Shown: positions 24,037 through 49,121 of the stretch, piece after piece
Layout of the letters: each line of letters opens with the position of its first letter
Position numbering within the stretch: the stretch's first letter is position 1
Translations under genes and position numbers: made by a program
From: Waddliaceae bacterium
GTDB taxonomy: Bacteria; Chlamydiota; Chlamydiia; Chlamydiales; SLFE01
Assembly: GCA_963771045.1 (NCBI GenBank)
Contig: CAVYRW010000004.1
Coordinates: forward strand, 1,056,001 to 1,120,000
Direction of reading: 5' to 3'
Length of the DNA: 64,000 bases
Notes under the pieces: model-generated
Told to the model about the DNA's origin: nothing
The model's input: only the letters and a program-made list of their open reading frames with translations
Database searches by the model: none

Positions 24037-24660
24037 ATGTTGATACACAATGCTAAAGTTCGCCTGTCCCCGGGAAGGGGAATTGGCCTCTTTGCTACAG
24101 AAGATATACCTACGGGGACAGTCATCTGGTGTCCTTGCGATAAATGCGAATATTATGAAAAAGGGGTATTGGGTCACTGCTCCGATGAAATGGCTTTCAG
24201 GCTTGAAGAACATGGGTATTATCTTGTAAATGGCGATATTCTGATTCCCTGCCAAAATGCCTGTTACATGAATCACTCCTGCGAGGCGAATTGTTTGGAT
24301 TTCGGACTGGATTTTGGTCTTGCTGTCAAGCCGATAAAAAAAGACGAGGAAATTTTTTGCGATTATCGCAACTGGCAAAATGACCCTGATTGGGAATTTA
24401 ACTGCTGCTGTGGAACTGCCAGGTGTCAAAAAAAAATCAGTCCAAGGCATGGTGAAGCTCGTGATTTGCAGCAAGAATGGATGAGAAAACTTAATGGAGG
24501 ACTGAAGCAAATGGCATCAGTCCGGCAGGGACTTTTCGAAACATTGATAAGGTGCAGCCACCACTTCCCCCGGTTGATCCGCAACATCGGCCTGTTCGAT
24601 CACAAAACTGCTGTTACCGTTAGAGCGCCGCATTTCATCAAGGAAGGGGATAAGCTTTGA
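24037..24660 (+). CDS. SET domain protein-lysine methyltransferase with post-SET motif
   Basis: GxG motif GRGIGLFA, NHSCEANC, EEIFCDY and post-SET CCCGTARC. Confidence 0.9.
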   Translation: MLIHNAKVRLSPGRGIGLFATEDIPTGTVIWCPCDKCEYYEKGVLGHCSDEMAFRLEEHGYYLVNGDILIPCQNACYMNHSCEANCLDFGLDFGLAVKPIKKDEEIFCDYRNWQNDPDWEFNCCCGTARCQKKISPRHGEARDLQQEWMRKLNGGLKQMASVRQGLFETLIRCSHHFPRLIRNIGLFDHKTAVTVRAPHFIKEGDKL

Positions 24661-25761
24661 TACAAATCCTTCCTCTAGCGAATCTTTGTCTGTATTGACG
24701 GCATAAGAGAAAAAGATATGCTTTTCGTTTTCATTACGTGCGGGGAAATAGAGAATTCCGGCCTTAAAGCCCCATTGCTCTCCAACGGCCTGCCAAAAGC
24801 TGCACCCTTCCTGAAAACAAAGCTGCCAGATTCCCAGACTATAGCGGTACTCTTTAGCTTTAACAAGAGGGATTTTGTTATCAAAAGGATGAACGGGAAA
24901 ACAATGGCGTCGGCAATCATTTAGAAAATTTGTCTGAAAGATAAGGTTTCGAAATCCGATGAGAAGATCCTCAGGGGTACTTATCAGAGCTCCTGCCGAC
25001 CATTCGTCCCAACTGTCATCAACTAGGTCTGAGATATCAAGATAGTTTGAAACCGGAGATGTCGCAAACAAAGACACATTCAGCAAATTTATGGCGGCAT
25101 AGGCTCTGGCGATTTTTTCATTAAGGCTAATGTAAACCGAGCTTTTCGGCATTATCAGAGGTTCGGTCACATTATCCCTAACTGCCTCGATAAAGGGTTG
25201 TCCTGACAGCTCTTCGACAACGATGCCGAGTATTAAATAATTGAGGTTGGAATATTGGAAATCTTGACTCTCGTTATACTCACTATTGGCCAAAGCGAAT
25301 TCCACAAATGCCCAAGGCAAGATTGGTTTTTTTTTAAGTGAGGTGAACATTCGGAGGTAGGGAAATGTTTCCTGGAAATCGGGAAGGCCGGAAGTGTGGG
25401 TCAGAAGCTGCAATACGGTGATGTCTTTAAGGGGCGGGTATTTTTTGCATAATGTATCGAATCTTCCGCCCAATTCGTTTAATTTTGTTTGAATGGGTAA
25501 ATTTTTTCTTTGAAGAAGGTCAAAGACCAGAAAACCGGTGAATGTTTTGATCACACTGCCGCATTTGAACAAGGTGTCCGGCGTTATCTTTTCCTTGTTT
25601 CTGAGGTCGGCATAGCCTGCACAAAGTATTTCAGGGGGCTTGTCATTGACGGCGATAGCGGCGCAAACGCCCGGGGCATCAATACGCAATGTGAAATCGG
25701 CTGCCCGGCAAAGCAGCGCAGCCGATAAAAAGCATAAAATAAAGGGCAATCTTATTTTCAC
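24517..25761 (-). CDS. Secreted serine hydrolase (beta-lactamase-like / S12 peptidase family)
   Basis: GTG start and signal peptide; SxxK (GSVIK), LLTHTSGL, YSN, AGALIST. Last gene of the operon. Confidence 0.88.
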   Translation of the reverse strand: MKIRLPFILCFLSAALLCRAADFTLRIDAPGVCAAIAVNDKPPEILCAGYADLRNKEKITPDTLFKCGSVIKTFTGFLVFDLLQRKNLPIQTKLNELGGRFDTLCKKYPPLKDITVLQLLTHTSGLPDFQETFPYLRMFTSLKKKPILPWAFVEFALANSEYNESQDFQYSNLNYLILGIVVEELSGQPFIEAVRDNVTEPLIMPKSSVYISLNEKIARAYAAINLLNVSLFATSPVSNYLDISDLVDDSWDEWSAGALISTPEDLLIGFRNLIFQTNFLNDCRRHCFPVHPFDNKIPLVKAKEYRYSLGIWQLCFQEGCSFWQAVGEQWGFKAGILYFPARNENEKHIFFSYAVNTDKDSLEEGFVSKLIPFLDEMRRSNGNSSFVIEQADVADQPGEVVAAPYQCFEKSLPD

Positions 25762-25762
25762 C

Positions 25763-26995
25763 TTATGCGATAGCTCTCATTTTAAGCAGCTCAGTCAACA
25801 GTTTTTCACAAAGAGCTGTCTCGCTAAATGATGACAATACAACCTCTTCGCTTTTATTGAGTTTATCGATAAGCTCGATAAGTTCCTGATGGTTGTCCAT
25901 GCATTCACAATAGCCGTTTGCAGAAACAAAAAGCTGTCCGCTAGGCACTAGATCCCACATGATCGGAGCAGCCGAGCATTTTTTATAGGCACAGGAGGAT
26001 TCCAAACTGGCTTCGGCTTTTGGAGGAAGCCCCGCCACAGCGCAAGCTGTCTGGTGCATGATCCGCTGCTGATTCAGTTTGTCTTGGAAATCGAGGTTTT
26101 TGACAGCTTGGAAACAGTCATTGAGCTCTATAGACCAGCATTCCGAGGCGACTGTTTTATTCTCCTTGCCGAACTGATCCTTGATGGCCTCTTCAATCAC
26201 ATCCAATGTGACAGATTTTGCCCAGCCATCCATGTATACGGAGATATTGACGCACATGCAAAGCTCAGGAGAGCTTCCGACGTGCCAGTACAGTCCGGGG
26301 CAATAGGTAGCCTGGCCGGGGGCTGCGATAAAGGTTCCTCGATGTTCTTTTCTCCAGTTGATATCGCCTGTGCTTAGGTATTCTTCGGACCCTGTTGCAA
26401 GCTGGCCGATAGGGTTGTCTTCGGGCTTGGCAGCATGGGGAGGCCAGATGTAAAAATACTTATTACCGGAGATCGTAAAGTGGAAATTGTGGCAAGAGGC
26501 TCTGTGGATGCTTCCGGGTGTCTTAACATAGCGGCCTAAAAACATTTCCACATCGATGGATCCTTTGGGGATGCCGGTCTGCTGAATAAACGGGTATAAA
26601 AAGTGTTGTACGCGCTCTGTGAGGACCGGAGAGTATTGGGTAATCTGGTTGATAAAGATCATGAAGTCTTTATTTCCAGTCATCTGATCCAATCTGGAAA
26701 CAAAGCTTTCGAGGTTGGCATCTTCAGGGGAAGGGAGGTGCCTTTTGACCTGATGCAGCATTTGTTTAGAATCGACAAACATTTTCAGATCGGCGAACTT
26801 TCCTTTGTTTCGGTATTTTTCCGAAGCTTCAACCACGATATCAAAAATTTCTTGTTCCGTTGCCAGCGGGACCTGAAATTGCATCAGCTTCCCTTTTTGA
26901 CACCAAGTGGCATCGACAAATTCTTTCCAGCTCGATTCGTCAAGGCAGGGTCCTTCGATTTGATTCTTTTTTTCTGATTCAATAGCGCAAACCAT
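25763..26995 (-). CDS. JmjC/cupin-fold Fe(II)/2-oxoglutarate oxygenase-like protein
   Basis: FLGRY..TP..IH, GNKYFYIWP, PGQATYCPGLYWH cupin pattern with a winged-helix-like C-terminus; the metal motif reads HRA. Confidence 0.75.
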   Translation of the reverse strand: MVCAIESEKKNQIEGPCLDESSWKEFVDATWCQKGKLMQFQVPLATEQEIFDIVVEASEKYRNKGKFADLKMFVDSKQMLHQVKRHLPSPEDANLESFVSRLDQMTGNKDFMIFINQITQYSPVLTERVQHFLYPFIQQTGIPKGSIDVEMFLGRYVKTPGSIHRASCHNFHFTISGNKYFYIWPPHAAKPEDNPIGQLATGSEEYLSTGDINWRKEHRGTFIAAPGQATYCPGLYWHVGSSPELCMCVNISVYMDGWAKSVTLDVIEEAIKDQFGKENKTVASECWSIELNDCFQAVKNLDFQDKLNQQRIMHQTACAVAGLPPKAEASLESSCAYKKCSAAPIMWDLVPSGQLFVSANGYCECMDNHQELIELIDKLNKSEEVVLSSFSETALCEKLLTELLKMRAIA

Positions 26996-27004
26996 GTGTT
27001 TCTC

Positions 27005-28894
27005 CTATTTGTATAATGATATTTTTGTATTCTCGGAAATCCATGAGAGGCTGTTTTCCCACGATAGATCGGGAAAACCGAGCCGATCCCTTAATTGCTT
27101 AGAAAACTCGGGCATAATTGGGTAAAGACCTATGGCAAATTGTTTCAAAGCGAGCAGTTCCAACGAGACTTGGGTCGGGAAGGTCTCCGGATCGAGGGGG
27201 CTTACCTGATTGAGGTAATCGGCCAGCTGTTCCATAAATCCGGCGAGCGCCTCTGCGGCCTGCTTATTTGAGAATGACGCTGGAGTATAGCAGCTTCGAA
27301 TTTGTTTTCTAAAGAAAACCAATTCATTAAAGAATTGTCTGTCCCTTTCACTCCAGAGATAAGGTGAAGAAGCGGCGCCTCCCCAGGTTTCAAGATGTTT
27401 TTCTATGGATTTCAACGTCTCTTGCCATTTTCCGCATACGACCGTCTCAACAAATTCTTCGTATTGATTGACCGAAAAATTCGTGCGGCTCTGTTCCGGA
27501 CTTTGCAAAGAGAGATAAAACCGCGTCGGTTCTACAGTCTCTTCATTGATATGCGACAGCAGCCAGATGGCATGCTTGCGGCTTGTGGAGAATTTTTCGT
27601 TATCGAGTAAAAAGAATTCGTTTGAAATCAATCCAACTGGAAGCGCGCATGTGTTTAACGCCATAAAAATCGCGGGAAATAAAAAGCAGTTAAAAAAAGC
27701 ATTGTCCTTGCCGAAACATTGGATCAGTTTTTTATCCGGGTAGTGGGTTTCAGAGAAAAAGTGGTGGGCAAGACCCATTTCGAACCAAACAGAGATGACC
27801 TGACCGCTGTCTGCCGGCACAGGAACTCCCCAATCAAAGGGGAAGGAGACCGGATAATCAGGTAGAGGTTTTCTTAAGATCGATTGACACCAATTTCTAA
27901 GAGAGCTGTTCATTGGGCACTCCTGCAGAAATGTTTCGATTTTTTCTCTAAAAGGCTCAAGAGGAAAAAAGTATCTTTCTGTTTCAATCTTTTGAATGTC
28001 TCCCGAAGTCACTGTCGATTGAGGAGCGTCTATCTGCTGGCAATCATGGACATAGGCACACTCTTCGCAGAGATTGCCCCTGCAGCGAGCATGGCAATAG
28101 GGGCAAAAACCGGACAGGAAAGCTTCAAAAAGAAAAATGCCTTCTGAATCAATAAAACCCTCTTCTTTTCTTTTAACGAGTGTGCCCGATTGGCAGAGGG
28201 AGAGAAATCTCTTCTGAATTTGTTCTTGATAGCCTAGTATCGCATCCGGTTTTGTAAAACGGTCCAATTCGACTTTGCTTTGGGCAAGAGCCTCTTCGAT
28301 ACGTCTTCCGAATTGCTTAGCCGTTTCTTTGTTTGAGATCTTAAGATCGCGAGCCTTTTGAGCGGTATAGCTTTGATGGTCGTCTTGTCCTGTTTGATGG
28401 ACGGCATGGGTACCTTCAAGAAGCATCCCTCTTCTTAAGATATCAGCCCTCAAATAGGGGCCGCTTAAATGGCCAAGATGAAGATCGCCGTTTGGAGTTG
28501 GGGGAGTCGATGTAATGACATAGTCAAAAGCCTGCTGTTTTGTAGCGCCCTTTTCAAACCAGTTCATATCTTCCCACCAAAGGCTTAAGAAAACTAGGGA
28601 CGAATCATTTGCTGTGTTTGTCACAGAATGCTCTTCAAAGGGAAGGAATTGCATGATTGCGTTTGAGTTAAACGGAAGCCTTTTTTTACCGGATCTTACC
28701 TCGCCCTTGCCTTGAAGGTGGATAAATATCTCGCAGTCATGGTGGATATGGGCAGAGGTCGTCTCGCCTGGCTGCAGGACGAGATACGCGGCTTTCATCG
28801 GGGGACTTGGTTTCTCCAGCCCGAATTCAATCTTTTGAAACCCGGCGTTGAAAAGCCGCTTACATTCTTTAGGGCAAAGTTTTATTTCCTGCAT
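27005..28894 (-). CDS. Cupin / methionyl-tRNA-synthetase-like fusion (hydrazine synthetase, Spb40/Tri28/PyrN type)
   Basis: N-terminal cupin HIHHDCE...PFEEH...LSLWW. MetRS-like HIGH motif PTPNGDLHLGH, zinc knuckle CPYC...CEEC, KMSKS variant KFSTS. Clustered with a Lys N6-hydroxylase and an FAD oxidase. Confidence 0.9.
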   Translation of the reverse strand: MQEIKLCPKECKRLFNAGFQKIEFGLEKPSPPMKAAYLVLQPGETTSAHIHHDCEIFIHLQGKGEVRSGKKRLPFNSNAIMQFLPFEEHSVTNTANDSSLVFLSLWWEDMNWFEKGATKQQAFDYVITSTPPTPNGDLHLGHLSGPYLRADILRRGMLLEGTHAVHQTGQDDHQSYTAQKARDLKISNKETAKQFGRRIEEALAQSKVELDRFTKPDAILGYQEQIQKRFLSLCQSGTLVKRKEEGFIDSEGIFLFEAFLSGFCPYCHARCRGNLCEECAYVHDCQQIDAPQSTVTSGDIQKIETERYFFPLEPFREKIETFLQECPMNSSLRNWCQSILRKPLPDYPVSFPFDWGVPVPADSGQVISVWFEMGLAHHFFSETHYPDKKLIQCFGKDNAFFNCFLFPAIFMALNTCALPVGLISNEFFLLDNEKFSTSRKHAIWLLSHINEETVEPTRFYLSLQSPEQSRTNFSVNQYEEFVETVVCGKWQETLKSIEKHLETWGGAASSPYLWSERDRQFFNELVFFRKQIRSCYTPASFSNKQAAEALAGFMEQLADYLNQVSPLDPETFPTQVSLELLALKQFAIGLYPIMPEFSKQLRDRLGFPDLSWENSLSWISENTKISLYK

Positions 28895-29895
28895 AAAGCT
28901 ACCTGCTGGGTAAAATGGTTTTTTATCCGGTTGGCAAGGGCCGGAGCCAGACGGTATCCGGACCCCGACCCTGCTGTGACGGCTATGCGCCGGCCGGAGT
29001 CATCGACCTGAAAAACAGCGGGAGTAAAATCCTTGCTGTAGGCGTCGCAAAAGACGCGTCCTCCCATGACATTTGCCGCCATTTTTTTGCAATAGCGCGA
29101 CAAAATTGCTCGTCCCGATTGGAGAATTTTTTCGTTAAGGAAAAATTGTTCGGTTGGAAGGCAGTCCCATTGGCAGAGGGTAAAGCTGAATTTCCATTGA
29201 TTTGATTGGTAATCGGGAAGGAGGAAGGCGTCATCATCAAAGAAATAATAAAGAGGTGTCGTTTCATTTAATCGGATATCCGAGGCAATATGCAAACAGG
29301 CGATTTTTTTTGTCCGGATCCCTTTTGTTTTTTGTGTAAGCCAAGGGCCTGTCGCTTCGATGACTCTTTCACTGTTGATAACAGATTGCAAAGAGTTGAA
29401 GATATAGCCGTTTTCACAGGATTCGACATTAAAAACCGGCGTGCCTTCAAAAATTTGGACGCCCTGTTTTTTCAGCCAGAGAGCCAGCTCTTTGCATGTC
29501 GCGTAGACATCGCCGGAATAGGCTGCCGCACCTTTCAAATGAAGGCGATTGAACTTGCCTTCTATGGGAGCGTCCAACTCTGCTAAGACAGCTTTTTTTG
29601 CCTCTTCAAGACTATTGGAGGAAACGACAACGCTTAAAGGATGATGCCTGATATCGAGTTCGGGAACAATTGACTTGAGTTTTTTCCACTGCTCGATGCT
29701 TTCTAAAGTCAATCGCCTCTTTTCCTCTGTGCGTCCGATCGGGAAGTCGACGCCGAGTGAATATAGACTGGCGCCCGTACCGACTAAAGATTTTTCAAAA
29801 ATCGCTATAGTCCAATCGGGCCTTTCGGCTTTAATCATTGCAGCGGAAGTCAACCCAATGATGCCGCCGCCGATAACAGAAAGATCCAACTTCAT
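28882..29895 (-). CDS. FAD-dependent oxidoreductase (D-amino acid oxidase-like; Spb39/Tri27 type)
   Basis: VIGGGIIG, GTGASLYS.G, ATGPW, FCDAYS, AGSGSGYRLAPALA. Confidence 0.88.
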   Translation of the reverse strand: MKLDLSVIGGGIIGLTSAAMIKAERPDWTIAIFEKSLVGTGASLYSLGVDFPIGRTEEKRRLTLESIEQWKKLKSIVPELDIRHHPLSVVVSSNSLEEAKKAVLAELDAPIEGKFNRLHLKGAAAYSGDVYATCKELALWLKKQGVQIFEGTPVFNVESCENGYIFNSLQSVINSERVIEATGPWLTQKTKGIRTKKIACLHIASDIRLNETTPLYYFFDDDAFLLPDYQSNQWKFSFTLCQWDCLPTEQFFLNEKILQSGRAILSRYCKKMAANVMGGRVFCDAYSKDFTPAVFQVDDSGRRIAVTAGSGSGYRLAPALANRIKNHFTQQVALCRK

Positions 29896-29910
29896 AATCT
29901 ACCTATTTGT

Positions 29911-31200
29911 TTACACAATCGGCTCGAGTACGGGGTGCTGATGCGCCCTTTCTTTTGAGCTGCTGTGAAGAGGATAAATTTCTTGTCCGCATAAGCTATT
30001 GACAATCATAGCCGACCGCCATGCCATCAAACTTAAATTGGCATCGGCAACACCTCGACAATGCCGCGATCCATTCTGGATATAGATTTTGGCTTTGTCG
30101 GTATAATCCCATTGAACGGAGTAATCCTCGTTAGTCTGTAAATGGCCGTCTTCTGTAGATGAAATATATTCTTGCAGAGATTTTAAATAAGTAGGAAACT
30201 CCCAGCGGTATCCTGTACTCAGGATAACATAATCAACAAGGCGGGAAGACTGGTTTTTTTCAAGGATATTGTAATAAGAAACATTCCATTGATCTTCTTC
30301 TTTTTCGATTTTGTTGACTTGGGTATTGGTATGGATTTCGAGTCCCTTCCATCCATCACGGAATTTTAACTGATACCACCTCTGATAGAGGTCTCTCAGA
30401 AGTTCGTCGTTGATTCCGTCGCTTGCCAATTTATGTTGATTGAGCAGGATTTTTTTGACGTCTCTTTCCTTGAGGAAAAATTGCTCGACATAATTGGGAG
30501 TGAACCAATCATTGGCAAACGGGGAGTCATCAAGGGGGGCCAGATGGCTTCTGCGGGTGAGCCAGCAGAGACTCTCCGGGAGGGCATCGTTTGATGACAA
30601 GATGTCATTGACGATCTCAGCCCCTGTCTGGCCTCCACCTACAACAATTGCTCTTCGCCCTTTTAAATCGGGCTTGATCTCAAGAAAGCGGCTGGCATGG
30701 AACATGGTTTTTTGCGAAGACGGCAGGTGAAATGATGGAATGTTTGGGGCAAGTCCGGTGCCAATTACAATATGCCGCGATTTCACAAATTTATCCTGAT
30801 AAAAAATATGAAAATAAGGCTCGTGAAACTCCACTTTCTTTACCTTTGAGTCAAAACATATATTATCCACCGAATTGCAGACCCATTGTAGATACTGTTC
30901 AAACTCCCACCTCCTGGGGGTTTCAAACTTGGCATTAAGATGGGTATAAAAGCGGTTGTGGCGCTTGAGGAAATTCAAAAAACTATAAGGACTCATCGGA
31001 TCGACCAAAGTGACAAGGTCTTTCAAATAGGAAACTTGTAAATTGGAATTGGGAAAGAGAAGCCCCGGATGCCAGGAAAAAGTTTCTTTGGCCTCTAAAA
31101 ACAGCGAATTAACCTGTTTAACAGGATGCAAAAGGGCCGCAAGACTTAAATTGAAGGGGCCGACGCCTATACCTACCAGATCATAAAGTTTTTGACCCAT
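29911..31200 (-). CDS. L-lysine N6-monooxygenase (IucD/SidA family)
   Basis: GIGVGPFNLSLAAL, FSWHPG, LQVSYLKDLVT, VVGGGQTGAE, STGY, HCRGVADANLSLMAWRS. Confidence 0.95.
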   Translation of the reverse strand: MGQKLYDLVGIGVGPFNLSLAALLHPVKQVNSLFLEAKETFSWHPGLLFPNSNLQVSYLKDLVTLVDPMSPYSFLNFLKRHNRFYTHLNAKFETPRRWEFEQYLQWVCNSVDNICFDSKVKKVEFHEPYFHIFYQDKFVKSRHIVIGTGLAPNIPSFHLPSSQKTMFHASRFLEIKPDLKGRRAIVVGGGQTGAEIVNDILSSNDALPESLCWLTRRSHLAPLDDSPFANDWFTPNYVEQFFLKERDVKKILLNQHKLASDGINDELLRDLYQRWYQLKFRDGWKGLEIHTNTQVNKIEKEEDQWNVSYYNILEKNQSSRLVDYVILSTGYRWEFPTYLKSLQEYISSTEDGHLQTNEDYSVQWDYTDKAKIYIQNGSRHCRGVADANLSLMAWRSAMIVNSLCGQEIYPLHSSSKERAHQHPVLEPIV

Positions 31201-31202
31201 AA

Positions 31203-32264
31203 TCAGCTTCTCCTTTCAAGCAAAGGGGGATAACGATGAATTTTTCCGTTGTAATCTTCTACAACATACGATTCATGCTTATCGTCTGTTGAGAGTTCCT
31301 TCAAATAGTTGGGATTGATAGGAACCTTGCCAAAACCGCCCGGAAGATCCAATGCATAAGTTGGCTGGCAAAGGCCCGAAAGTCTGCCCCTTATTTTTTT
31401 TAGCAATTGCTGCCCTTCTTCAATAGTTGTCCTGAAATGAGACGTCCCCTTGGCATAGTCGCCATGGTGAAGGTAATAAGGTTTGATCCTGTTTTTGACG
31501 AGCGCCCTAAACAGGTTTTCCAGCTTAACGGGGTCATCATTGATTCCTTTGAGAAGGACGCTTTGGCTGAGCATAGGAATACCTGATTCTACTATCCTGG
31601 CGATTGCCTTTTTGGACTTGTCGATAAACTCTTTTGCATGGTTGGTGTGGAGTATAATATAAAGAGCTTTATCGGTTTTCAATGCTTCTAGCATCTCATC
31701 AGAGATGCGGTCAGAGTCGACTATCGGAACGCGGGTGTGTATTCTGATCACTTCCACATGATCAATTGACGATAAACGGGTGATGATTTGCTTGATCATG
31801 CTCGGAGGCATAAAGAGAGGGTCCCCGCCGGTAAGAATGACTTCCCAGATTTCCTCAGTGTTTTGAATATACTCGAAAGCGGCGTCCAGTTCCTTTCGGT
31901 TCAATCCCGATTTGGCAGATCCTACCTTTTCTCTCCTGAAACAGAAGCGGCAATAGACAGGACATACAGTCATAGGAAGAAAGAGGCAGCGGTCAGGATA
32001 CCTGTGCACAATCCCTTTGACGGGACTGCGTGCGTTATCCCCGATGGGATCGGCCAGTTCTTCTTGTTTTACAGATAACTCTTTGGCATTGGGGACAAAT
32101 TGAGCGGATATAGGATCATCGTCATTATTGATATCGATCAATCCTGCCATCTGATCAGTAATTGATAAGGAAAAGCGATCGACAACTTGCTTGAGTTCGC
32201 TGACTTTTTCTTCTGGAATAATTCCTAAGTCATGCAGCTCATCAACTTTCTTAATTTTACCCAT
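31203..32264 (-). CDS. KamA-family radical SAM protein (lysine 2,3-aminomutase-like)
   Basis: VHRYPDR, CxxxCxxC (CPVYCRFC), TGGDP, QSVLLKGIND, PYYLH, PLP-lysine motif PGGFGK. Confidence 0.93.
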   Translation of the reverse strand: MGKIKKVDELHDLGIIPEEKVSELKQVVDRFSLSITDQMAGLIDINNDDDPISAQFVPNAKELSVKQEELADPIGDNARSPVKGIVHRYPDRCLFLPMTVCPVYCRFCFRREKVGSAKSGLNRKELDAAFEYIQNTEEIWEVILTGGDPLFMPPSMIKQIITRLSSIDHVEVIRIHTRVPIVDSDRISDEMLEALKTDKALYIILHTNHAKEFIDKSKKAIARIVESGIPMLSQSVLLKGINDDPVKLENLFRALVKNRIKPYYLHHGDYAKGTSHFRTTIEEGQQLLKKIRGRLSGLCQPTYALDLPGGFGKVPINPNYLKELSTDDKHESYVVEDYNGKIHRYPPLLERRS

Positions 32265-32288
32265 AATTCTTCCCCCATTTTTTAATTG

Positions 32289-33593
32289 TCATTGGTGCAA
32301 TACCGCCCCTTCCATTTTTAGGAAACGTTTTTCGATATCAAAAGCCTCTTCCAAAAGGTTGGAAAAAATGATATATCGTATTTTATTGTCAAGATGAATG
32401 GTATTCGAATGAATAAGAACACCTGTTTTTGTTTCGGGATTGAACGCGATATTTTCATTTTCGATATATTCTAGAACACTCTCAAAGGTTATATCGCCGT
32501 TAGCAACCGCGGCATCCTGCACCCAGCAGGTATGCGGATAATAGTCAGGATCAACCAATCTTCTGGCTAGATAATCAATGAATGTTCCTGCAGTGCGCCT
32601 AAAATTGGACTCGGTCGCAAAAAACTGGCCTTGATCATCCAGGCAGCAGTCGACATCGCAAATTCCTCTAAATCCAAGACTGTGCAGATAATTGCCAAAT
32701 CTTAAGCCGACATCGGAAAGCCTATTCTGCTGGTTATGGTCAATTGTATTTGGCGGCGTGACCATACCGCTGTAAGCGGCGCCTGGACATCTTTGGTCGC
32801 AGATATATAAAATATGCGGCCCCTGCTCTGTTACCTCGATTTCAACACTTGGCAACGCGGTAAAATTAACGAACTGCTCAACGATAAAACGGAATGGCTG
32901 GCTTGAGTAGCATGACAAGTTCTTCTCGAGCAATGCAAGAACAGTCGTGTTTTTAATATCCTCCTTGCCGATGATGACATGGCCGTAGCCGTTTGAACTT
33001 CTGTCGAATTTAATGATCACTTTGTCTGAGGAACAAAGCAGTTTTTCAACATTGGCAGCAAGATCCTGCAGACCGGAACAGAAACATCCTTTGACAGTCG
33101 GAATGCCAAGTTTATGCATCAACTTGCGGAAACCGGATTTTGTGTTGATGTCATAAAAGGCTTCCATGAGTTCGCGGGAAGGAAATTCCTTGTATCCCCA
33201 AATCGGAGATCCAACTTCCCATGCCAATGAAAGCGTTGGACGGTCCGAAGCAAAGGGGAGTAGAGAGGCATCCCGGTGATGTTTGACATAATCTCCCATC
33301 TTCTCGAAGGTATCGTCCATGCGGACGCGGTGGGCGAGAAGATCGGTCAATTCCCCTTTAGGAGTCAAGGTTTTGACTTTATCGGGGTTGATTCCAATTG
33401 TTTTGGCCACATACTTTTTAAAAACAGGATCGATAGGCACAGGTGTCACGATAAGGTCGTTTTCGTTTGCAATCCACATCTTTCTCGGCGTGATAGCCGA
33501 CATCGCTTTGGCATAGCGCATTGTCGGTATCTCAATCATCAGCTCGTTAACGACGTTGGCAAATATTATCCACGGTTTTCGATTGGTATTCAT
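32289..33593 (-). CDS. preATP-grasp / PGM1-like ATP-grasp peptide ligase
   Basis: IIFANV, NTKSGFR, IIKFDRSSNGYG, IVEQFV, GFRGICDVD, ESNFR ATP-grasp motifs. Confidence 0.85.
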   Translation of the reverse strand: MNTNRKPWIIFANVVNELMIEIPTMRYAKAMSAITPRKMWIANENDLIVTPVPIDPVFKKYVAKTIGINPDKVKTLTPKGELTDLLAHRVRMDDTFEKMGDYVKHHRDASLLPFASDRPTLSLAWEVGSPIWGYKEFPSRELMEAFYDINTKSGFRKLMHKLGIPTVKGCFCSGLQDLAANVEKLLCSSDKVIIKFDRSSNGYGHVIIGKEDIKNTTVLALLEKNLSCYSSQPFRFIVEQFVNFTALPSVEIEVTEQGPHILYICDQRCPGAAYSGMVTPPNTIDHNQQNRLSDVGLRFGNYLHSLGFRGICDVDCCLDDQGQFFATESNFRRTAGTFIDYLARRLVDPDYYPHTCWVQDAAVANGDITFESVLEYIENENIAFNPETKTGVLIHSNTIHLDNKIRYIIFSNLLEEAFDIEKRFLKMEGAVLHQ

Positions 33594-33602
33594 GATTTTC
33601 TC

Positions 33603-34343
33603 CTACTTTTTAAATCCGCCGTAAACAGCATGCCCTGCGCTTGCCCAAAAGACTTCGATAGAAGCAAAGCCCGCCTCTTCCAGCCACTTGAGCTGGTCAT
33701 AAAGGCTCGATGGTTTGTCAATGGGATCATTTTCAGCATTCGGATCGGAATAGTAATTCCACTCGGTTCTTTTAAATGCCTCGTAAGCAGATTCGCTGCC
33801 GAAAATTTCCAGCGAACGTTTTTGAGTTTCCTCATCCCAGTTATCTGCGAAAATCTTTTTTGATTCCGGAGAGTTAGGGTACATGAGATCGGCGATAATC
33901 AATGCCCCTCCGGGTTCTAACTGGCCATAGAGATCTTTAAAGAGGGCCTTTTTCTGCGCCGCATCTAAATGATGGACCGCCAGTGAAGAAACAAAAGCAT
34001 GGACAGGCTGGGGGAATGTTCTCCACTCCATTTCGGCAAGGTCGAATTGTTTGACTTCGATCCTATCGGAATACTCTTTGTTTTTTCTTTTAGTTTCGTC
34101 TAGCATTTTTTGGCTTAGATCCATTCCCCATACTGTTGCCTTTGGAATGTTTTCTAAAAGCGCTTTGCAAGTATCTCCGGAGCCGCAGCAAAGCTCGACA
34201 ATAATGCCTTTTTTTTCCATTTTGGGAATGGCTTTTATGAGAATTTCAATTTGCCTTTCTTTTTGCGGAACAAAGCAATCGCCATATTTGATAAAGATTT
34301 CACTCTCATCTTCAGTCCATTTGTTTTCCGTTGTTTCGTTCAT
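33603..34343 (-). CDS. Class I SAM-dependent methyltransferase
   Basis: Motif I VELCCGSG, GMDLSQKML, SSLAVHHL, LEPGGALIIAD. GGAGGT RBS before the ATG at 34343. Confidence 0.93.
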   Translation of the reverse strand: MNETTENKWTEDESEIFIKYGDCFVPQKERQIEILIKAIPKMEKKGIIVELCCGSGDTCKALLENIPKATVWGMDLSQKMLDETKRKNKEYSDRIEVKQFDLAEMEWRTFPQPVHAFVSSLAVHHLDAAQKKALFKDLYGQLEPGGALIIADLMYPNSPESKKIFADNWDEETQKRSLEIFGSESAYEAFKRTEWNYYSDPNAENDPIDKPSSLYDQLKWLEEAGFASIEVFWASAGHAVYGGFKK

Positions 34344-34371
34344 GCTGACTACCTCCATTTTTTACATGACG

Positions 34372-34400
34372 ATCGTACTCGAATCGATAATTAATGTTAA
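34372..34400 (-). promoter_or_regulatory. Putative sigma70/sigma66 promoter of the hydrazine operon
   Basis: Minus strand TTAACA-N17-TACGAT, about 30 bp upstream of the methyltransferase start, preceded by an AT-rich tract. Confidence 0.45.
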
Positions 34401-34483: not shown

Positions 34484-34622
34484 ACCGGTGGTTGTAACCT
34501 AAAGGGTTATCTTACGATAAATTTTTCTTCCGTCATGTCTCAAGACATGCCTCTCGTCAAAATTTTCGAAATCCAACCTCCATCTGTAGCGCCCAGCTTC
34601 AGATTAGGCCGCAATCACGGGT
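34484..34622. mobile_element. MITE sharing ends with the IS982 element
   Basis: Imperfect TIRs ACCGGTGGTTGTAACCTAA / TTAGGCCGCAATCACGGGT and a 3-bp direct repeat TAA. The interior matches 8953-9070 in reverse complement. Confidence 0.85.
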
Positions 34623-34719
34623 TAAAGGTTGAATGTAAAACAGACAGCATGTATACCTTTATGATTTGTAAAAGCGATCTCATAGGAATAATGATAAACT
34701 TAAGCAACAGGGGAAAATC

Positions 34720-34917
34720 ATGAGCAAACGAAATTGTCCAAAATGCGAGTCGAAAGCGATCAAAAAAAATGGCTTTACAAGACACGGAAAACAAAATCAC
34801 CGCTGCCTTGATTGCGGGCGTCAATTTTCCTTGGAACCGAGCGATGAAGACTTTCAGGAATTTCTAAATCCGCAAATTCACGAGGAAACTTACATCAGCT
34901 GTAAAATCGTCGATTAA
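34720..34917 (+). pseudogene. IS1-type InsA zinc-ribbon fragment
   Basis: CPKC...KKNG...GKQNHRCLDCGRQF is homologous to the N-terminus of the IS1 transposase at 43709, then diverges. No TIRs seen. Confidence 0.7.
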
Positions 34918-37900
34918 TTATATGGCTGCATTTCCCAGGGAAAGGGTTGCGTTGTCGGTTTTGGAATTGGCTTTTGACCTAGCGTGCCGCCTAGAAGATC
35001 CATGAGTCCGCCGACAATCACCCCTTGAGGCCCTCCACGAAGCTGAGCGATAAACGCTGCAATCTTAGTCGAGGCTTTGTTTGAATTAATGCTCGGATCA
35101 GACAGGCTTCCCTTCATTGTCAATTGAAGATAATAATCTTTCGGAACGCCTTTCAACCCAAATGCCTGCCTCAGCGTCATTCCTCCAAGGCCGATCTTCA
35201 TATTGATATTATCATCGTAAAAATTCACCCTGCCCCAGGCAGCAACGGGATAGCGGCCAGCAACAAGCATGTCCACGCGGTTGATATCGGCCACGCCATT
35301 GTGATAGCTGAGATATAGGGGAGTGAACCATACGGAGATTAAATTCATGTCGGTCGAATACTTTAAAATGCTGAGGATCTGAGCAATTTGAAAGTCGTTT
35401 TTAAAGTACATCTTGCCTAAGTCGACTCTCATAGCGCCAACGGAAAATTGATAGGGGGCTTGAGACCACAACGGGTAGGAAAATCCATTTTGGTCAATGG
35501 TAACGCGTATCGGTTCTTCAGAACTATAGGCAGAATTCAAAAAGGGGAGCAGTTCATCCAGGATTGAATCCTGCAGTGTAGGCGTTATTGAAAACTCGGC
35601 GCTTAAAGGGGATTTGAGAGTCAGTATGCCCCGTGATAAGTAGCCGTCAAGCGACAATTTTCCGGTAGTTCCATTGATGGCTAATTGAATCGGTCCAGTC
35701 ATCTCCGACAAACTAACATTCAACTGGGCATTCACCCTGTGGCCGATTAGCGCTTTGACTTGATTAAGTACACTCTCATCCAGACATAAAAAGTTTGATA
35801 AAAGCAAAGCGGGAGCTTGGTGGGCTTCAGCCTGAACTTCCATAGAAGCTCCATGCCTGTTAAATGACCCGTCAGAATGAAAAATATCTTTAATGACAGA
35901 ACTAAAAGAAAATGGAGCTCTTCATTTTGCTCATTATAAATGCTGCCTCCGGCATCAAATTCAATCCCGATGGAATCAGATAAGTCGCTTGAGGCTGCGC
36001 GGGCGGCGACACCGTCAATGAATACCATGTCGTCTGTCATCGTGTCGAGGACATAAATACTTGCGGTATTCAGTTCGATAGCAATCGACGAATGGGAAGG
36101 GTTTATTAAAGGGATGACAAGATTCGAAATGTCTGCTTTTACCGAAGTTGATTGTTGAAGTTGCAGCTGATCGATAAGTCCGGTATTTTGACATAGTAAA
36201 TGTTTTCTGATTGCGGAAAATCTCTCAGGAGTCATTTCCCAATGTATAACAACAGGACGACTCGGGTCTTCGAGAGTCAACTGCTGGTCAGCCTTTAATG
36301 ATCCGGCAATGTCAAATTGATCCCCGTTGACCGAGAATATCACATGCCCTTCGCTGCCATCCAAATCGTCATAAACTTTGACAGCGGCATCAAGAGACGG
36401 GCCGATTAATCCATCAAGCTCGTCAATTTCTGTAAATGCGCTTATAACGACAACTGGAAATGCCGTTATCGCCGTTTCCGCATTCACTTTCCACTCTTCT
36501 ATATTACCGGTCCAGCCTGAGACCCGAACATGCCCTTCAAGCTTCCCTTTTTGTTCCATGTTTCGGTTGGCTGTGACGGCAGCAATGGTAAATGTTAACT
36601 CGTCATTTTTCGCATTTGCCGACCAGGGAATGAATATTTTTCTCAGAGATGCCATAGCATCCCCCTGATCTTCTCCTACCGATATTTCGTCGATCAAAAG
36701 CCGCCCTTTAGACGATATTTTGGACAATGAAAAATCGCGAACATCAAGTTTTACCTCATCGAGCAAAAGCTGCATTATGGCTGGAGAGCAGAGATGGTAA
36801 TCGTGCTGTTTTTGATCCTGAATCTCGGATAAAAGCTGAGGGGTTAGCATGTAGTTGATATATCCGGATAGGGCTAATTCGAAGGGGTTATCTGTTTTTC
36901 CACTGCCTGCCAGGTTTAAAACAAGCTGGCCATCTTCTGCGGCTAGGTCAAACTTCTCCACATGGGGGATAAAATCATCCGAGAGGTTGAGCTTAGAAGA
37001 CAATTTGAAGCGGAGTTCGTCTCCCAAAGATCTTGATAGGGGATTTTCCTGGTCAAATCGGTTGAGCCTTCCGATTAAAGAGAGCTGCAGGTGTTCTAAA
37101 GACAGGGCGTCAAGTGTTAATAAACCGTTCGTAAAATGGCATTGATTCACCCAGGGAAGATGAGAAAATTCGAGATCGCGAACCGAGATTGTGGATTGAA
37201 GGGCAATATCTTTAGGGGTGATTTTATCTGAAAGGTTTATGTTAAGGTGGTTGACTTGAATCGTTAAGGGAAGGGTTTTAGGCAGTATCTCGCTAAGGCC
37301 TGCATGGGGAGTATAATCAATGGCAATATTGATCGGCTCGACGAGTGCAATGTGAAAATCGTCCCACTCAAAAACGGCCTTCTGAATTTTTGCGGTGCTG
37401 GATGATAATTTCAATAAACCGTATTGTTCTTGATTTTCACGAACAAGGCGCAAAGACCCGTCAATATTGGAACCGAAAATTGATTTTGCCCATGTTTTGA
37501 ATCTTTTGTCTTGCGACAAGATAATTGAGAAGCGAGGCCCTAAGCCGTTTGCCTTCTAAAAGTAGATCATAATTCCTGTCTTCCGTTAGCGATAACCATC
37601 CTCGCACGGCTGCATCACTATCGCCGCCCTTATCGGTAATAATACCGGAGAGGTCAAAATCCAGTTTCTTAAGGTTGTCCGACAGCAAGACGATTCCTTC
37701 TGCATTTGTCAAGCTGACCCCGTTTTGCAAATCCATCCGAACAGGATTCAATTGGAATTTATAACCTTTTCCTGTCAGCAGGGAAATTTCCAGAGGGGTA
37801 TCGAAAGTCATGAAACCTTGCTTCTGCAATTTTTGTGCAAGGCTGTGCGGCATTGTATAAACGATCTTTCCTTCTTTGGAGAATACAGGCCCATTGTTTG

Positions 37901-38393
37901 TCATGCTGATATAGATATCGGCGTGTCCATTTTCCGACGAGGCGTCAATATGAATGATCTCATTATCCTGATCTACAGAAAGGTTAATGACTGGACCGGC
38001 AATTTCGGAGACGGTCAGAGATAAAGGAGTGAACGTCTCTTTGAATGTTTTTGCGGCCAAATGAGGCAGGGAAGCAGAGAGATTTTTCGTTTCAAATTTG
38101 TCTATCCACTCATTTGTGAACAAAAGACGGTAAATAGAGGAATTCACAGCAAGAGTGTCAAATTGAATATCGGATTCATCGCCGCCAGTCCAGTGAAAAC
38201 GGTTGGCTCGCTGAGGCCCAAACCAGCTGAGACGTACACGATCAACTTGAACCTTCCCTCCAAAAGTGTGCTCCAGATAAGGAATCAACAGATAATCCTT
38301 AGCCGGCCTTGTGGAAAGGATGAACGGTAGGGAGATGACAAATCCGATAAAAAATAAAACCGTATAGATGATTATTCGTAGACTTTTTGCCAT
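34914..38393 (-). pseudogene. Large chlamydial-type envelope protein (AsmA/TamB-like) split by two frameshifts into ORFs 38393-37461, 37519-35747 and 35843-34914
   Basis: N-terminal TM anchor plus LSWFGPQ, long beta-rich body, C-terminal WFTPL...RVDMLV...PFPWE. The three overlapping ORFs join into about 1160 codons. Confidence 0.7.
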
Positions 38394-38677: not shown

Positions 38678-41209
38678 ATGAACAAGATAAACACATTGAA
38701 CAATTCTAAAAATTTGTCTAGAAATCATCAATCTTTTTCGGGTAATCCGGACAAATTTACCGCAGTCATTCGTAGAATGAATGAAGGAGAACTTGCGGAA
38801 ACCAATTGCGTTTGGATGAGTGCAAAAGATATGCAGCGATATTTTCCGGAGCAAAACGAAGATAATGCTGCCTTTGCGAGAATTGCCAACCGCGTTTACC
38901 GCATTGCCGAAAAATCGTGGATAAAACCGGGTGAAATCGGATTGAATCCGGTTCAATTCGAAGAAGTGTCTGCCGTTATCAATAAAGATGATACTGTCCT
39001 TATAACACCCTATAGGCAGAACCCTGCCTGCCGCCGGGACTTAACGGAAGCAAAATTCATCATATCGCCGCAAAGTCTGGATGATACCGTATCAATTAGT
39101 CAAAACATCCTCGACTTGGGCGAGATTAAAAACTACTTTCATCAGCATTATGAGGGGCATTTTCTTAAAGAAGGACAGGTTCTTCACTGCAATTTTAACA
39201 ACCGAGAATTTTTCGCCACATTTCATTCAGGCGAGGCGCATCAAACTCCTGAAAACAAACTTTTTTTTAGTACAATTATACCAACGACTGAATTATTTTT
39301 TGAAACTGTTGAAACCTCTCCTTACATTTTAAGCGAAAAGACAAATACTATTGAACAGCCGACATTTAAATTCGATGTCTTGATAACGGGACTCGATAAT
39401 TATCCCGATACCACGCGCCCTCTTATCTATAATGTGGAAAAGTTTGAGGAGAAGGTTAGGCTTGCGTTGCAAAACGAGTGGCTTGTCCCCGGCATGTTTG
39501 TCGAATACTCCATTGCAGCAGGGGTTAATATCAAAGTTATTTTAAAAGAAACCCTATTGCCTAAAAAAAACGTCCAGCTTGCAAGAAAAGGAGCTGTCTA
39601 TACAAAAGCTTACCGCCTAACCCCGGAGGCCAAACTCGAATTTATTTCCGATAATGCAGATGTATGCGGCGTCAGAGGGGAGCCTCTTAAGCCGAAGCGG
39701 GTCACATTTCGAATCTGCATGATTGACTCTCTTCCCGGTTTAGATTCCATGCAGGAAGATATTAGCAATTGGATCAACGTATCCGAAGTGGGTCAAAAAA
39801 TCAGGGAATCGATAGACCTCTTTTCGGCAAACACGAAATTTTTTGTCGAACATGAGGGGTATCTTCTGAATTTGGAAATCTTTGCTATCGATAATGAAGA
39901 TCTCGTTAAGCACGATTCCGTCAATATGAAGCATTGGGAATTGTCTGATGATACGCGGATCTTTCTCAATTTAAAAAACGGCATCGACCTCAATCTCATT
40001 CCCGATACGAAAACACATTCGCTGAAAAAAATGACTGTGTATATTTCGACTAAAAAAACCCAGAAAAACATTGAACTTACCGAAGTGGATTTGGATGCCT
40101 TAAAGCAGGCAATTAAAGACTATCTTCCCATAGAGAGGTGCCTCAATCAGAAATTTACAGTTGATTTAGGGGGTGATCTTCTCCTCGACGTCAAGGTTAA
40201 AAATATGGCATTCAAAACAAGCAGATATAACGGAACGATTTATCCCCACCTTGGAAAAACAACATCCGACACTGAATTGGCTATTGAATACGATAACTAT
40301 CAAATCTGGATGAGCCACAAGCCGAATATCATAAGATTTAAAAACGGCGATGCCCGCCAAACTCTAGAAGAAGCCGGTTTGACAGGGCTGCCTGATGAAA
40401 TCGTCGAAGCTTTCGAACTCATTGCATACCCTTTGGGAGAATTAAGAGAATTAGCAAAAAAAATGAAAATCAAGTCACCCAATGGACTACTTCTCTATGG
40501 TGCTCCGGGAACGGGAAAAACCACATTTGCCAACGCTCTTGGAAAACTTCTGGATGTGACCAAGGACAATATCGTACAAGTCAAGCATGCCAACCTGCTT
40601 AGCAAGTGGGTCGGAGAGACTGAAAAAAATGTTAAAGCACTATTCGATAAAGCCCATAATAATAAAGATCAAAGGTTCATTGTCATCTTTGATGAGATCG
40701 AATCTCTTTGCGAAAAACGATCGAGAACGACAAGCTCCCCAAGAGCCAGCCTGGTAAACACTTTGCTTGAAGAAATGAGCTCTGCGCAGGATCTCGACAA
40801 TCTCATTGTTATCGGAACGACCAACCAGCTAGAGAGGATCGACGAGGCCTTCTTAAGACCGGGACGTTTTAGTGAAAAAATCGAATTTCCTCTGCCGGAT
40901 GCAGCGGGAAGGAAAAAAATCCTGGAATACTATATCAAGGACTTGCAAGAAGAAGAGGTCATCGAAGATGATATCGACCTTGACCGATTTGCGGCTGCCG
41001 CAAAAGACTTCTCGGGAGACCACTTAAAAGGGCTTGTTAAGAAAGCATCGAAATTGCGTCTGAGAAAGCTCGCTTCACTTAAACTCACAAAGGAGCAGGC
41101 CGAAAAACATCCTGATCGAAAGATCACAAACGCCGATTTTCTGGAGGCATTCGATAGCGTCAAGCCGCTAGTAGCAGGAAACGCTCCACCTGTCCACATG
41201 TATGTTTAA
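38678..41209 (+). CDS. NSF/Cdc48-like AAA+ ATPase with a single AAA module; paralogue of 16329-19595
   Basis: GAPGTGKT, SKWVGETE pore loop, VIFDEIE, DEAFLRPGR. The N-terminus (TNCVW..RIANRVY..W.K.G..GL) is shared with the paralogue; GGAGGT RBS. Confidence 0.87.
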   Translation: MNKINTLNNSKNLSRNHQSFSGNPDKFTAVIRRMNEGELAETNCVWMSAKDMQRYFPEQNEDNAAFARIANRVYRIAEKSWIKPGEIGLNPVQFEEVSAVINKDDTVLITPYRQNPACRRDLTEAKFIISPQSLDDTVSISQNILDLGEIKNYFHQHYEGHFLKEGQVLHCNFNNREFFATFHSGEAHQTPENKLFFSTIIPTTELFFETVETSPYILSEKTNTIEQPTFKFDVLITGLDNYPDTTRPLIYNVEKFEEKVRLALQNEWLVPGMFVEYSIAAGVNIKVILKETLLPKKNVQLARKGAVYTKAYRLTPEAKLEFISDNADVCGVRGEPLKPKRVTFRICMIDSLPGLDSMQEDISNWINVSEVGQKIRESIDLFSANTKFFVEHEGYLLNLEIFAIDNEDLVKHDSVNMKHWELSDDTRIFLNLKNGIDLNLIPDTKTHSLKKMTVYISTKKTQKNIELTEVDLDALKQAIKDYLPIERCLNQKFTVDLGGDLLLDVKVKNMAFKTSRYNGTIYPHLGKTTSDTELAIEYDNYQIWMSHKPNIIRFKNGDARQTLEEAGLTGLPDEIVEAFELIAYPLGELRELAKKMKIKSPNGLLLYGAPGTGKTTFANALGKLLDVTKDNIVQVKHANLLSKWVGETEKNVKALFDKAHNNKDQRFIVIFDEIESLCEKRSRTTSSPRASLVNTLLEEMSSAQDLDNLIVIGTTNQLERIDEAFLRPGRFSEKIEFPLPDAAGRKKILEYYIKDLQEEEVIEDDIDLDRFAAAAKDFSGDHLKGLVKKASKLRLRKLASLKLTKEQAEKHPDRKITNADFLEAFDSVKPLVAGNAPPVHMYV

Positions 41210-43617: not shown

Positions 43618-44443
43618 GGTGGTCCATAACATGTAATGCTCAATTTTTGAATTGACATTGATTTCCTTGTGCGTTTTCCTTTGTTTCTAAAACGAATGGA
43701 GGACCCAAATGACACCCACTTGTCCTAACTGTAAATCCACCAGTATCAAAAAGAACGGCCATATTCACAGTGGAAAGCAAAATCATAGGTGTTTGTCTTG
43801 TGGAAGGCAATTCGTCATCGATCCTCAGCAAAAAATAATATCAGATGAGACAAAATCAAGAGTAAGACAGGCATTGCTTGAACGCGTTTCTCTCGAAGGT
43901 ATTTGTAGAATCTTTGACGTCAGCATGCCCTGGCTTTTGAATTTTATGAACAGAATAATCGAAGATCTTCCAGAAGATTTGAATGCGGATGTCACTGGAG
44001 AAGAAGAGTTTGAGGTAGCTATACTTGAGCTTGATGAACAGTGGAGCTATGTAGGAAAGAAAAAAAATCCAATATGGCTTTGGCTCGCATTTCATTCAGG
44101 TACACGACAGGTATTAGCTATGCATGTAGGAAAAAGAAATAAGCAAGCAGCAGAATCCTTATTAGCGAAGCTCCCCGAGGACTTAAAAAAAAAGCCGTCT
44201 TTTATACGGATAAGTTCTCAATCTACTACGAAGTCCTTCCTTGGGAACAACATCGCCCAGTCGGAAAGGAGTCAGGTAAGACAAGCTACATTGAGAGATT
44301 TAATAACACGCTCAGGCAGCGATGCTCAAGGCTAGTGAGAAAAACCCTTTCATTTTCAAAGAAAATTGAGAACCATATTGGCATGATAAAATATTTTATA
44401 TGTGACTATAACCAGAGAAAAGCATTACAAGTTTAGGACTACC
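43618..44443 (+). mobile_element. IS1-family insertion sequence
   Basis: TIRs GGTGGTCCATAACATGTAATGCT / AGCATTACAAGTTTAGGACTACC and an 8-bp TSD GAAGTTCT (43610-43617, 44444-44451). Confidence 0.95.
43709..44436 (+). CDS. IS1-family transposase expressed via -1 frameshift
   Basis: Zinc ribbon and ELDEQWSYV; A9 tract at 44185-44193; the -1 frame continues FYTD...YIERFNNTLRQR...TLSFSK to TAG at 44434-44436. Confidence 0.9.
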
Positions 44444-44701
44444 GAAGTTCTATTGAGTTCCTTGTCAATGAGTTCAACCTGATCCTGAGCGGCAATAATA
44501 GCTTTAGAGATTAAATCAAGAGTTGGCTTAGCTTGGAATAAAGTAAACTCTCTATTATTGAGAGCCAAACAAACTGTATTATTCATATCTTGAAACCATT
44601 TAAGAGTATTCTCTGCAGCTTCTTTTGATTTTTTTAAAAGCTCAACTTCGTCATTAGTAAATTCTTCAAATATATCGGCTAAATTTTTTGGTTTAGAATT
44701 A

Positions 44702-46099: not shown

Positions 46100-46255
46100 T
46101 AGAATTATTATTTTCAACGTTCATCTTTCTTCTCCTTTTTTCCCAATTTTTAGAATGTAACTTTTCATACCTTAAGAGGATTAAGATTCGATAAAGGATC
46201 ACAATCCAATCCTTTTACATTTATTTTCGTATTCGCTATCTAAAGAGGAAATAGG

Positions 46256-47488: not shown

Positions 47489-47559
47489 AAAATGTTTTCT
47501 TGCCTCAATATCAAGGCCTGGTTGATAATGTATAAGAATTTTCTTTTAGGAGGTTAGAA

Positions 47560-48141: not shown

Positions 48142-48203
48142 GCCAGTAGATGAAGGAGACGCGTAATGCGCCAATTTAGACTAAAAAGGGATAGGTAAAT
48201 CGT

Positions 48204-49093: not shown

Positions 49094-49121
49094 TTTTCAT
49101 TAATCTGAGCTAAGGACTATA

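Follow-up and report, generated by a model that had tools for sequence, protein, structure and literature searches.

The closest described relative of the locus reported here is the biosynthetic cluster of negamycin, a supply-limited antibiotic that is active against Gram-negative bacteria and is also a readthrough lead. Besides a heme enzyme, the known route requires nitrite and an external ferredoxin; it worked in only one of three heterologous hosts (bioRxiv 10.1101/2025.07.31.667836). The published cluster, neg2, comprises ten genes over ~11 kb with KamA in second place, and deletion of any of the first five genes abolishes negamycin (bioRxiv 10.1101/2025.07.31.667836). The heme enzyme NegJ yields hydrazinoacetate (PMC12154649), and so does the Spb trio of a lysine N6-hydroxylase, a cupin-methionyl-tRNA synthetase (MetRS) fusion, and a flavin adenine dinucleotide (FAD) oxidase (bioRxiv 10.1101/2025.07.31.667836, PMC11705231, PMC13274452). 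PMC12154649, starting from the opposite observation, suggested that KinJ-type and Spb-type enzymes might be interchangeable sources of hydrazino acids. Here, we describe a nine-gene cluster in a 64,000-nucleotide stretch of DNA (the window; contig CAVYRW010000004.1, positions 1,056,001 to 1,120,000) from a Waddliaceae bacterium, whose genome we call G000. Judged by its gene content, the cluster is a variant of the negamycin family in which the N-N module has been replaced; it is not a canonical neg cluster.

Thirty-one of 44 homologs of the window ligase were aligned, and a GTDB scan with this alignment gave 53 loci, one of which (L019) belongs to Kitasatospora purpeofusca NRRL B-1817, a named negamycin producer (PMC12154649). 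L019 consists of ten contiguous genes over 11.5 kb, encoding in order a hydrolase, KamA (the second gene), a JmjC protein, a methyltransferase, an ATP-grasp ligase, a SET protein, a GNAT protein, an alpha/beta hydrolase, an MFS protein, and a protein devoid of Pfam domains. In its layout L019 fits neg2 as published, and the labels negA to negJ were assigned to its genes by order. The tenth protein carries the seven active-site residues of KinJ (R497, M498, N501, H504, H541, R551, and R570; PMC12154649) at identical spacing, and thus it was taken to be NegJ; ESM Atlas returned no usable match for it, and its single-sequence fold had a predicted local distance difference test (pLDDT) score of 37.

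The window cluster contains eight co-oriented minus-strand genes and one plus-strand SET gene, all intact in the list of open reading frames (ORFs), and each domain call was backed by Pfam and NCBIfam (Table 1). A sequence-only reading had described the eight genes in this place, order, and tight spacing (9, 24, 2, 15, −13 [overlap], 9, and 1 bp along the operon), with which the ORF and domain data agree. It had also called the operon complete; the eight genes are real, but the SET gene was missed. That reading stopped short of the negamycin product class and did not notice the H-x-A motif considered below. Outside the trio, the six remaining genes each pair with one of negA to negF, with identities given in Table 1 and 52 to 54% for KamA. 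K. purpeofusca has three KamAs, as published, and the window KamA is 54% identical to the neg-locus copy versus 36% and 28% to the others. The ligase family profile matches PGM1 (E 8e-35), and in a ligase tree of 33 rows, from which short matches and most of a distant group were left out, the window protein falls in a 26-row clade with NegE (100/99). An aminomutase, a NegE-type ligase, a NegD-type methyltransferase, and a NegC-type oxygenase, i.e., the negamycin-type set, thus occur together in the window. The two clusters share the counterparts of negA to negF and the same predicted hydrazinoacetate intermediate. In contrast to the neg cluster, the window lacks NegJ, hence has no need of nitrite, and its N-N bond would come from lysine N6 via the Spb-type trio; furthermore, negG, negH, and negI are absent, the NegC counterpart has H-x-A, the SET gene is inverted, and the host is an intracellular chlamydia.

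In the hydrazine-forming module, the hydroxylase gene neighbours the synthetase gene. PyrN-C was the best PDB match of the cupin-MetRS fusion (E 5e-81, versus 3e-44 for the best MetRS). The fusion carries the cupin residues H49/H51/E55/H89 (H-x-H-x3-E...H), a set identical in 115 of 119 homologs, in which E55 is equivalent to E56 of PyrN and E54 of AspHS, both essential (PyrN preprint). The pocket code of Matsuda et al., cited in PMC12376268, spans eight residues and reads TPDQWMNH in the glycine users Spb40 and AzsN. The window synthetase, with TPDQWMNN, equals this code at seven of eight positions and has N instead of H at the last; all seven chlamydial MetRS aligned read ALDGWANH. Glycine is therefore the likely rather than the certain substrate, because the last position differs and is called critical for side-chain recognition (PyrN preprint). 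In a FastTree phylogeny (131 rows, one broken row left out, supports approximate), the fusion sits inside an 11-row clade, all with TPDQWMNN, apart from the seven chlamydial MetRS. A housekeeping MetRS is encoded separately on the same contig, and the 40 relatives searched with the synthetase gave matches at the MetRS level only. The fusion was thus rejected as a housekeeping MetRS on account of its PyrN-C match and distinct pocket code. These data bear out the earlier view of the hydroxylase, fusion, and oxidase as a hydrazine trio.

The module resembles Spb38/39/40 of s56-p1 and its relatives (Tri26-28 of triacsin, Azs of azaserine, and NngKLM of N-nitroglycine) in its adjacent hydroxylase, cupin-MetRS, and DAO-family oxidase genes. 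It differs from them in lacking a downstream carrier protein or adenylation enzyme, being coupled instead to a free-standing ATP-grasp ligase and an aminomutase, and in the last code residue. PyrN of pyrazomycin (PDB 9VQ4/9L8V) is the closest solved structure, and its HLGH and KFSTS motifs align; however, its code SFVQALNR selects glutamate, and its two Glu-binding arginines are absent from the window synthetase.

Within the DNA examined at the 53 loci, ten carry NegJ, four a full trio (Aquimarina, Verminephrobacter, Streptomyces ossamyceticus, and a Paraburkholderia metagenome-assembled genome), one a frameshifted trio, none both, and the rest neither. NegJ was found in none of the four genomes searched, G000 and those of S. 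ossamyceticus, Aquimarina, and Paraburkholderia, with locus-level BLAST as the positive control. Two of the trio-type ligases, those of S. ossamyceticus and Paraburkholderia, branch within the NegJ-type rows of the ligase tree, and their synthetases have the exact glycine code TPDQWMNH. The simplest reading of these sequences is that one downstream pathway is fed by either of two hydrazinoacetate modules, and in the window cluster the N-N bond is likely made by the Spb38/39/40-type route in place of NegJ. Finding one downstream pathway combined with either source puts the interchangeability suggested in PMC12154649 to a direct test. The literature searched yielded no report of Spb-type neg clusters or of chlamydial hydrazine synthetases; such clusters may be listed in Wang et al. 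2025, Matsuda et al. 2024, or the supplements of PMC12154649 and of the bioRxiv preprints.

Several other loci of this set deserve mention. That of S. ossamyceticus NRRL B-3822 (L015, 6514-16102) contains negA/B/D/E at 61 to 76% and a split Spb trio, without JmjC or SET; it also lacks counterparts of the GNAT, second hydrolase, and MFS genes but has a different GNAT gene. This cultured strain is predicted from its genes to be a deoxynegamycin-type producer. In Dictyobacter arantiisoli (L013, 7016-16520), a NegJ-type cluster has a nitric oxide synthase gene next to it, which could be a third way of supplying nitrogen oxides. The symbiont genomes of Verminephrobacter (L010, the full-trio locus named above) and Mycoavidus (L023) hold a NegE-family ligase and KamA. 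Seven Streptomyces loci (L027 and L029-L034) have only KamA (72 to 75% to neg) and a NegE-type ligase (58 to 66%) with no N-N module nearby, and they may direct the synthesis of a beta-lysyl amide of something else.

Gene content, homology, motifs, and synteny are the basis on which we predict the activities and product of the cluster. Lysine would be N6-hydroxylated, as known for the enzyme family. The MetRS-like domain would adenylate an amino acid, probably glycine from its code, and transfer it to the N-OH group, and the zinc cupin would rearrange the ester into Lys-NH-NH-CH2COOH by known chemistry, so that the synthetase is predicted to form the N-N bond from N6-hydroxylysine and the amino acid. 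By analogy with Spb39 and NngL, whose chemistry is documented (PMC11705231, PMC13274452), the FAD oxidase is predicted to cleave the C-epsilon-N bond and free hydrazinoacetate. KamA, like NegB, would provide beta-lysine. In either order, the class I methyltransferase is predicted to N-methylate the inner nitrogen of hydrazinoacetate, and the ATP-grasp ligase to couple beta-lysine to the hydrazine NH2, yielding the hydrazide. The H-x-A oxygenase may then act at the carbon that NegC is thought to hydroxylate. We consider it probable that the product has the negamycin scaffold, a beta-lysyl hydrazide of N-methyl-hydrazinoacetate. Such a route, with lysine, glycine, ATP, S-adenosylmethionine (SAM), and O2 as inputs and low-GC genes to encode it, should be simpler to transfer than the known one. 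Surveys with antiSMASH have listed gene clusters in chlamydiae, for most of which no product is known; for the one in G000, both a structure and a target can be predicted.

A number of observations weigh against this product. The identities to the Neg proteins are modest (27 to 52%), and the serine hydrolase, NegA-like at the family level only, is 26 to 34% identical to unrelated chlamydial hydrolases and no closer to NegA. The ligase tree does not fix the exact place of the window ligase inside the NegE family, and the gene-to-step assignments of negA to negI are built on domain logic and one sentence in PMC12154649. No match to NegG (GNAT), NegH (hydrolase), or the MFS exporter NegI was found in G000 at E 1e-5, which leaves export and self-protection unexplained. 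Apy10, of the same oxidase family, cuts on the other side (PMC11705231, PMC13274452). The synthetase departs from the glycine code at its critical position, and no published substrate for TPDQWMNN was found in the literature searched. Finally, a sister species of the host has lost the pathway (see below).

Some of these points would equally suit a cluster of the same family that makes a different molecule, with the synthetase taking alanine or serine, or the oxidase or ligase having changed partner, to give a hydrazide outside the negamycin analogues. The deviant last code residue marks the whole 11-row synthetase clade, ligase identity is low, and the Aquimarina and Verminephrobacter clusters with TPDQWMNN hold extra tailoring genes. 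Set against this, the other seven code residues are those of the glycine code, and both modules feed the same ligase family, whose NegJ-type members receive glycine-derived hydrazinoacetate. We thus regard a different molecule as unlikely and retain the negamycin scaffold as the expected product.

How that scaffold would be tailored depends on the NegC counterpart. A predicted model of the JmjC protein (pLDDT 74) matches the ribosomal-oxygenase (ROX) fold of NO66/MINA53/YcfD. H-x-E is present in NegC and the ten other homologs from named loci (11/11), whereas the window protein has H164-R-A166 with H238, a register checked against H-F-D of YxbC. A word-based search with the protein matched only itself, and its relatives came from a profile search, among the best 150 matches of which H-x-D occurs in 88, H-x-E in 43, H-x-G in 15, and H-x-A in 4. 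The four H-x-A proteins are that of the window and its three closest relatives in this set (35 to 47% identity). A sequencing error at A166 was rejected, since the codon, GCC, is two changes away from Glu and H-x-A is common to the three relatives. One DNA sequencing run gave 14 short contigs of at least 99% identity within the stretch, none over the A166 codon, and neither confirms nor contradicts it. An independent metagenome contig (L082) carries an H-x-A gene beside hydroxylase and oxidase genes. The window protein retains T159, K179, W184, and H238, four residues that hardly vary across the family.

Two His and an Ala at the Asp/Glu position give this protein the sequence signature of an Fe(II)/2-oxoglutarate radical halogenase, for which PMC13489965 uses 2His-1Gly/Ala as the criterion and includes JmjC-annotated proteins among its predictions. 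The likeness lies in the H-x-A...H motif without a carboxylate ligand at the usual position. The validated AspX and BtnX of that work act on aspartate and biotin, whereas the window protein has a JmjC/ROX fold. On the other side, AspH hydroxylates with H-x-G, so two-His enzymes can be plain hydroxylases (PMC8252765). On its motif, the chances that the window enzyme chlorinates instead of hydroxylating are about even. A sentence in PMC12154649 and the structure of negamycin suggest that NegC hydroxylates the lysine chain. Together, NegC and the H-x-A oxygenase would make up a natural hydroxylase/halogenase pair whose substrate can be predicted. A chlorinated negamycin-type product overall is possible but doubtful. 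Equally tentative is the fuller picture, in which an obligate intracellular chlamydia makes a chloro-for-5-hydroxyl negamycin analogue (possibly an aziridine with the neighbouring amine) with a JmjC/ROX halogenase derived from NegC, a module swapped for NegJ, and an aminomutase captured as the sole supplier of beta-lysine for elongation factor P (EF-P), the product either being aimed at the ribosomes of co-infecting bacteria, as a defence, or altering stop-codon readthrough in the eukaryotic host. As a separate observation, the 15 more distant JmjC/ROX-family proteins with H-x-G...H among the 150 form a second set of candidate halogenases.

The host assembly (2.57 Mb, five contigs, 90.6% complete, 2.1% contamination) contains the window inside a 2.29-Mb contig. 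It encodes an Hc1 histone-like protein (the model also matched 1 of 14 control genomes) and five TLC nucleotide transporters (0 of 14 controls), and its 16S genes show no mismatch to two Chlamydiales primers. By these markers the host belongs to Chlamydiota, in agreement with the sequence-only reading, which had also proposed an acquired island. The genes flanking the cluster, acs and a large hypothetical gene, are 0.4 kb apart in G002, of the same genus, and 0.7 kb apart in G003, of the same family. At the same site in G001, a sister species of the same genus with 85 to 90% nucleotide identity, there are an intact methyltransferase gene, an intact KamA gene (93%), and pieces of three further cluster genes, namely, the first 39 ligase residues, 25 hydroxylase residues, and two SET gene pieces. 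On this sequence evidence, the G001 locus is a deletion scar, the pathway being lost save for the methyltransferase and aminomutase. Scar and empty sites together indicate that the cluster entered before the G000/G001 split and is no assembly artefact, and by the same evidence it is native to G000 and was acquired as an island. Its G+C content (43 to 47%, versus 44.6% for the contig) and third-codon-position G+C (0.45 to 0.52) are like those of the host.

In a sample of 400 further genomes of the phylum, the ligase had two matches, the G001 fragment and a distant protein at 24%, and the hydrazine synthetase occurs in 2 of 400 scored genomes, G000 and G219 (one genome unscored); these counts come from samples and are no proof of absence. 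No ligase relatives were found in viral contigs. The literature searched contained no report of this chemistry in the phylum. The cluster is not alone there. G219, of another chlamydial family, has a second, unrelated hydrazine cluster (contig C2, ~1022700-1040600) with a hydroxylase, an oxidase, a 2402-aa nonribosomal peptide synthetase, an AMP-ligase, a GNAT protein, an acyltransferase, a cupin-MetRS (code GPDQWMNY), and two methyltransferases.

The aminomutase may have a second role. In G000, efp lies beside epmA, as in the EpmA/EpmB system of EF-P, and the sole KamA-family (EpmB-like) gene is that of the cluster. Most of the 40 relatives have a distinct EpmB (33 to 39%), whereas G001 (93%), G002 (73%), and G013 (55%) have a cluster-type KamA; those of G000, G001, G002, and G013 form one clade (99) apart from native EpmB. 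The G002 and G013 genes may be cluster relics or may have arrived separately. In G000, the candidate for EpmB is a NegB-like gene that belongs to a biosynthetic operon. The four close relatives checked all retain epmA, and (R)-beta-lysine is presumably used by both EpmA and negamycin. From this distribution the cluster aminomutase probably also serves EF-P lysylation, which fits its retention in G001 after the pathway deletion; a secondary-metabolism gene can turn housekeeping and outlast its cluster. The same observations could mean that the cluster is not expressed or is being lost, and persists only because its aminomutase took over from the native EpmB needed to modify EF-P: besides the lone KamA next to efp-epmA and the G001 scar, G002 has its KamA without cluster genes in a 3-kb locus, and the cluster lacks an exporter. 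However, each of the nine reading frames is open and close in length to its homologs, whereas the host gene next door is broken into three ORFs; the catalytic motifs checked are intact, and the cluster has persisted since G000 and G001 diverged. We hold a silent cluster to be quite improbable. An assembly chimera or contaminant is refuted in practice, since the stretch lies with chlamydial markers and matching G+C inside a 2.29-Mb contig and the independently assembled G001 has remnants of five cluster genes at the same site, even though the assembly is incomplete and slightly contaminated and the sequencing-run contigs do not span the stretch.

Table 1. Features of the cluster and its border (window positions)
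Feature	Position	Strand	Evidence
Class I SAM methyltransferase, NegD counterpart	33603-34358	-	PF13649; 37% to fourth gene of K. purpeofusca locus; intact in G001 (86%)
PGM1-type ATP-grasp ligase, NegE counterpart	32289-33593	-	PF18604+PF18105; 32% to NegE over 423 aa
Radical-SAM lysine 2,3-aminomutase (KamA), NegB counterpart	31203-32264	-	TIGR03822 over cut-off, likewise NegB
Lysine N6-hydroxylase, Spb38 type	29911-31200	-	PF13434 E 2e-103; FAD and NADPH glycine motifs present
DAO-family FAD oxidase, Spb39 type	28882-29895	-	PF01266; 4 named loci have a homolog next to the synthetase
Cupin-MetRS hydrazine synthetase, Spb40/PyrN type	27005-28894	-	PF07883+PF09334; pocket code TPDQWMNN
JmjC/Cupin_8 Fe(II)/2-oxoglutarate enzyme, NegC counterpart	25763-26995	-	PF13621; 28% to NegC; H164-R-A166...H238
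Beta-lactamase-family serine hydrolase	24517-25761	-	PF00144; S69-V-I-K, Y170-S-N; 27% over 260 aa to NegA
SET-domain methyltransferase, NegF counterpart	24037-24660	+	PF00856; 40% to NegF
Multi-copy miniature inverted-repeat transposable element (MITE)-like repeat, upstream of operon	34505-34627		11 other copies of at least 100 bp in G000, 84-92% identical

The SET gene is convergent with the operon and overlaps the 3′ end of the hydrolase gene by 144 bp. In an alignment with 14 SET proteins from such clusters, its C-terminal part matches, and we therefore take it as a real gene. An ordinary chlamydial SET protein was rejected, as none of the three other SET genes in G000 matches it at E 1e-5. 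The N terminus of the serine hydrolase looks like a signal peptide by eye. At the upstream border, where a MITE and an insertion sequence (IS) 1 remnant had been proposed, the MITE-like repeat is real and is a boundary feature without sign of having moved the cluster. A 65-aa zinc-ribbon ORF (34720-34917) resembles the N terminus of IS1-family transposases (InsA-like) and shares 64% identity over a 36-aa span with 10 further genomic sites. It is also present at the cluster site in three relatives (71 to 94%), including the empty sites (88% and 71%), and was therefore rejected as a mobilising element and as a trace of the insertion; it is possibly a domesticated fragment. The two border stretches examined contained no direct repeats, and scans for promoters and terminators gave counts close to chance (24 versus 16.8 ± 4.2 expected, and 9 versus 12.9).

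Beyond the border, the host gene at 34914-38393 is a single 1159-aa frame in G001 and three ORFs here, reflecting a pseudogene or assembly indels. The region is flanked by genes for two large AAA+ ATPases whose N-terminal parts are long and unusual (16329-19595 and 38678-41209). A dense IS region (43709-63049; IS1, IS256, IS66 twice, ISAs1, and IS4) includes genes for a 1590-aa Rhs/YD-repeat protein (54521-59293) and a NodZ-like glycosyltransferase (49535-50362). At 7333-8774, a TnpB gene (347 aa) and a small upstream ORF form an IS200/IS605-type element.

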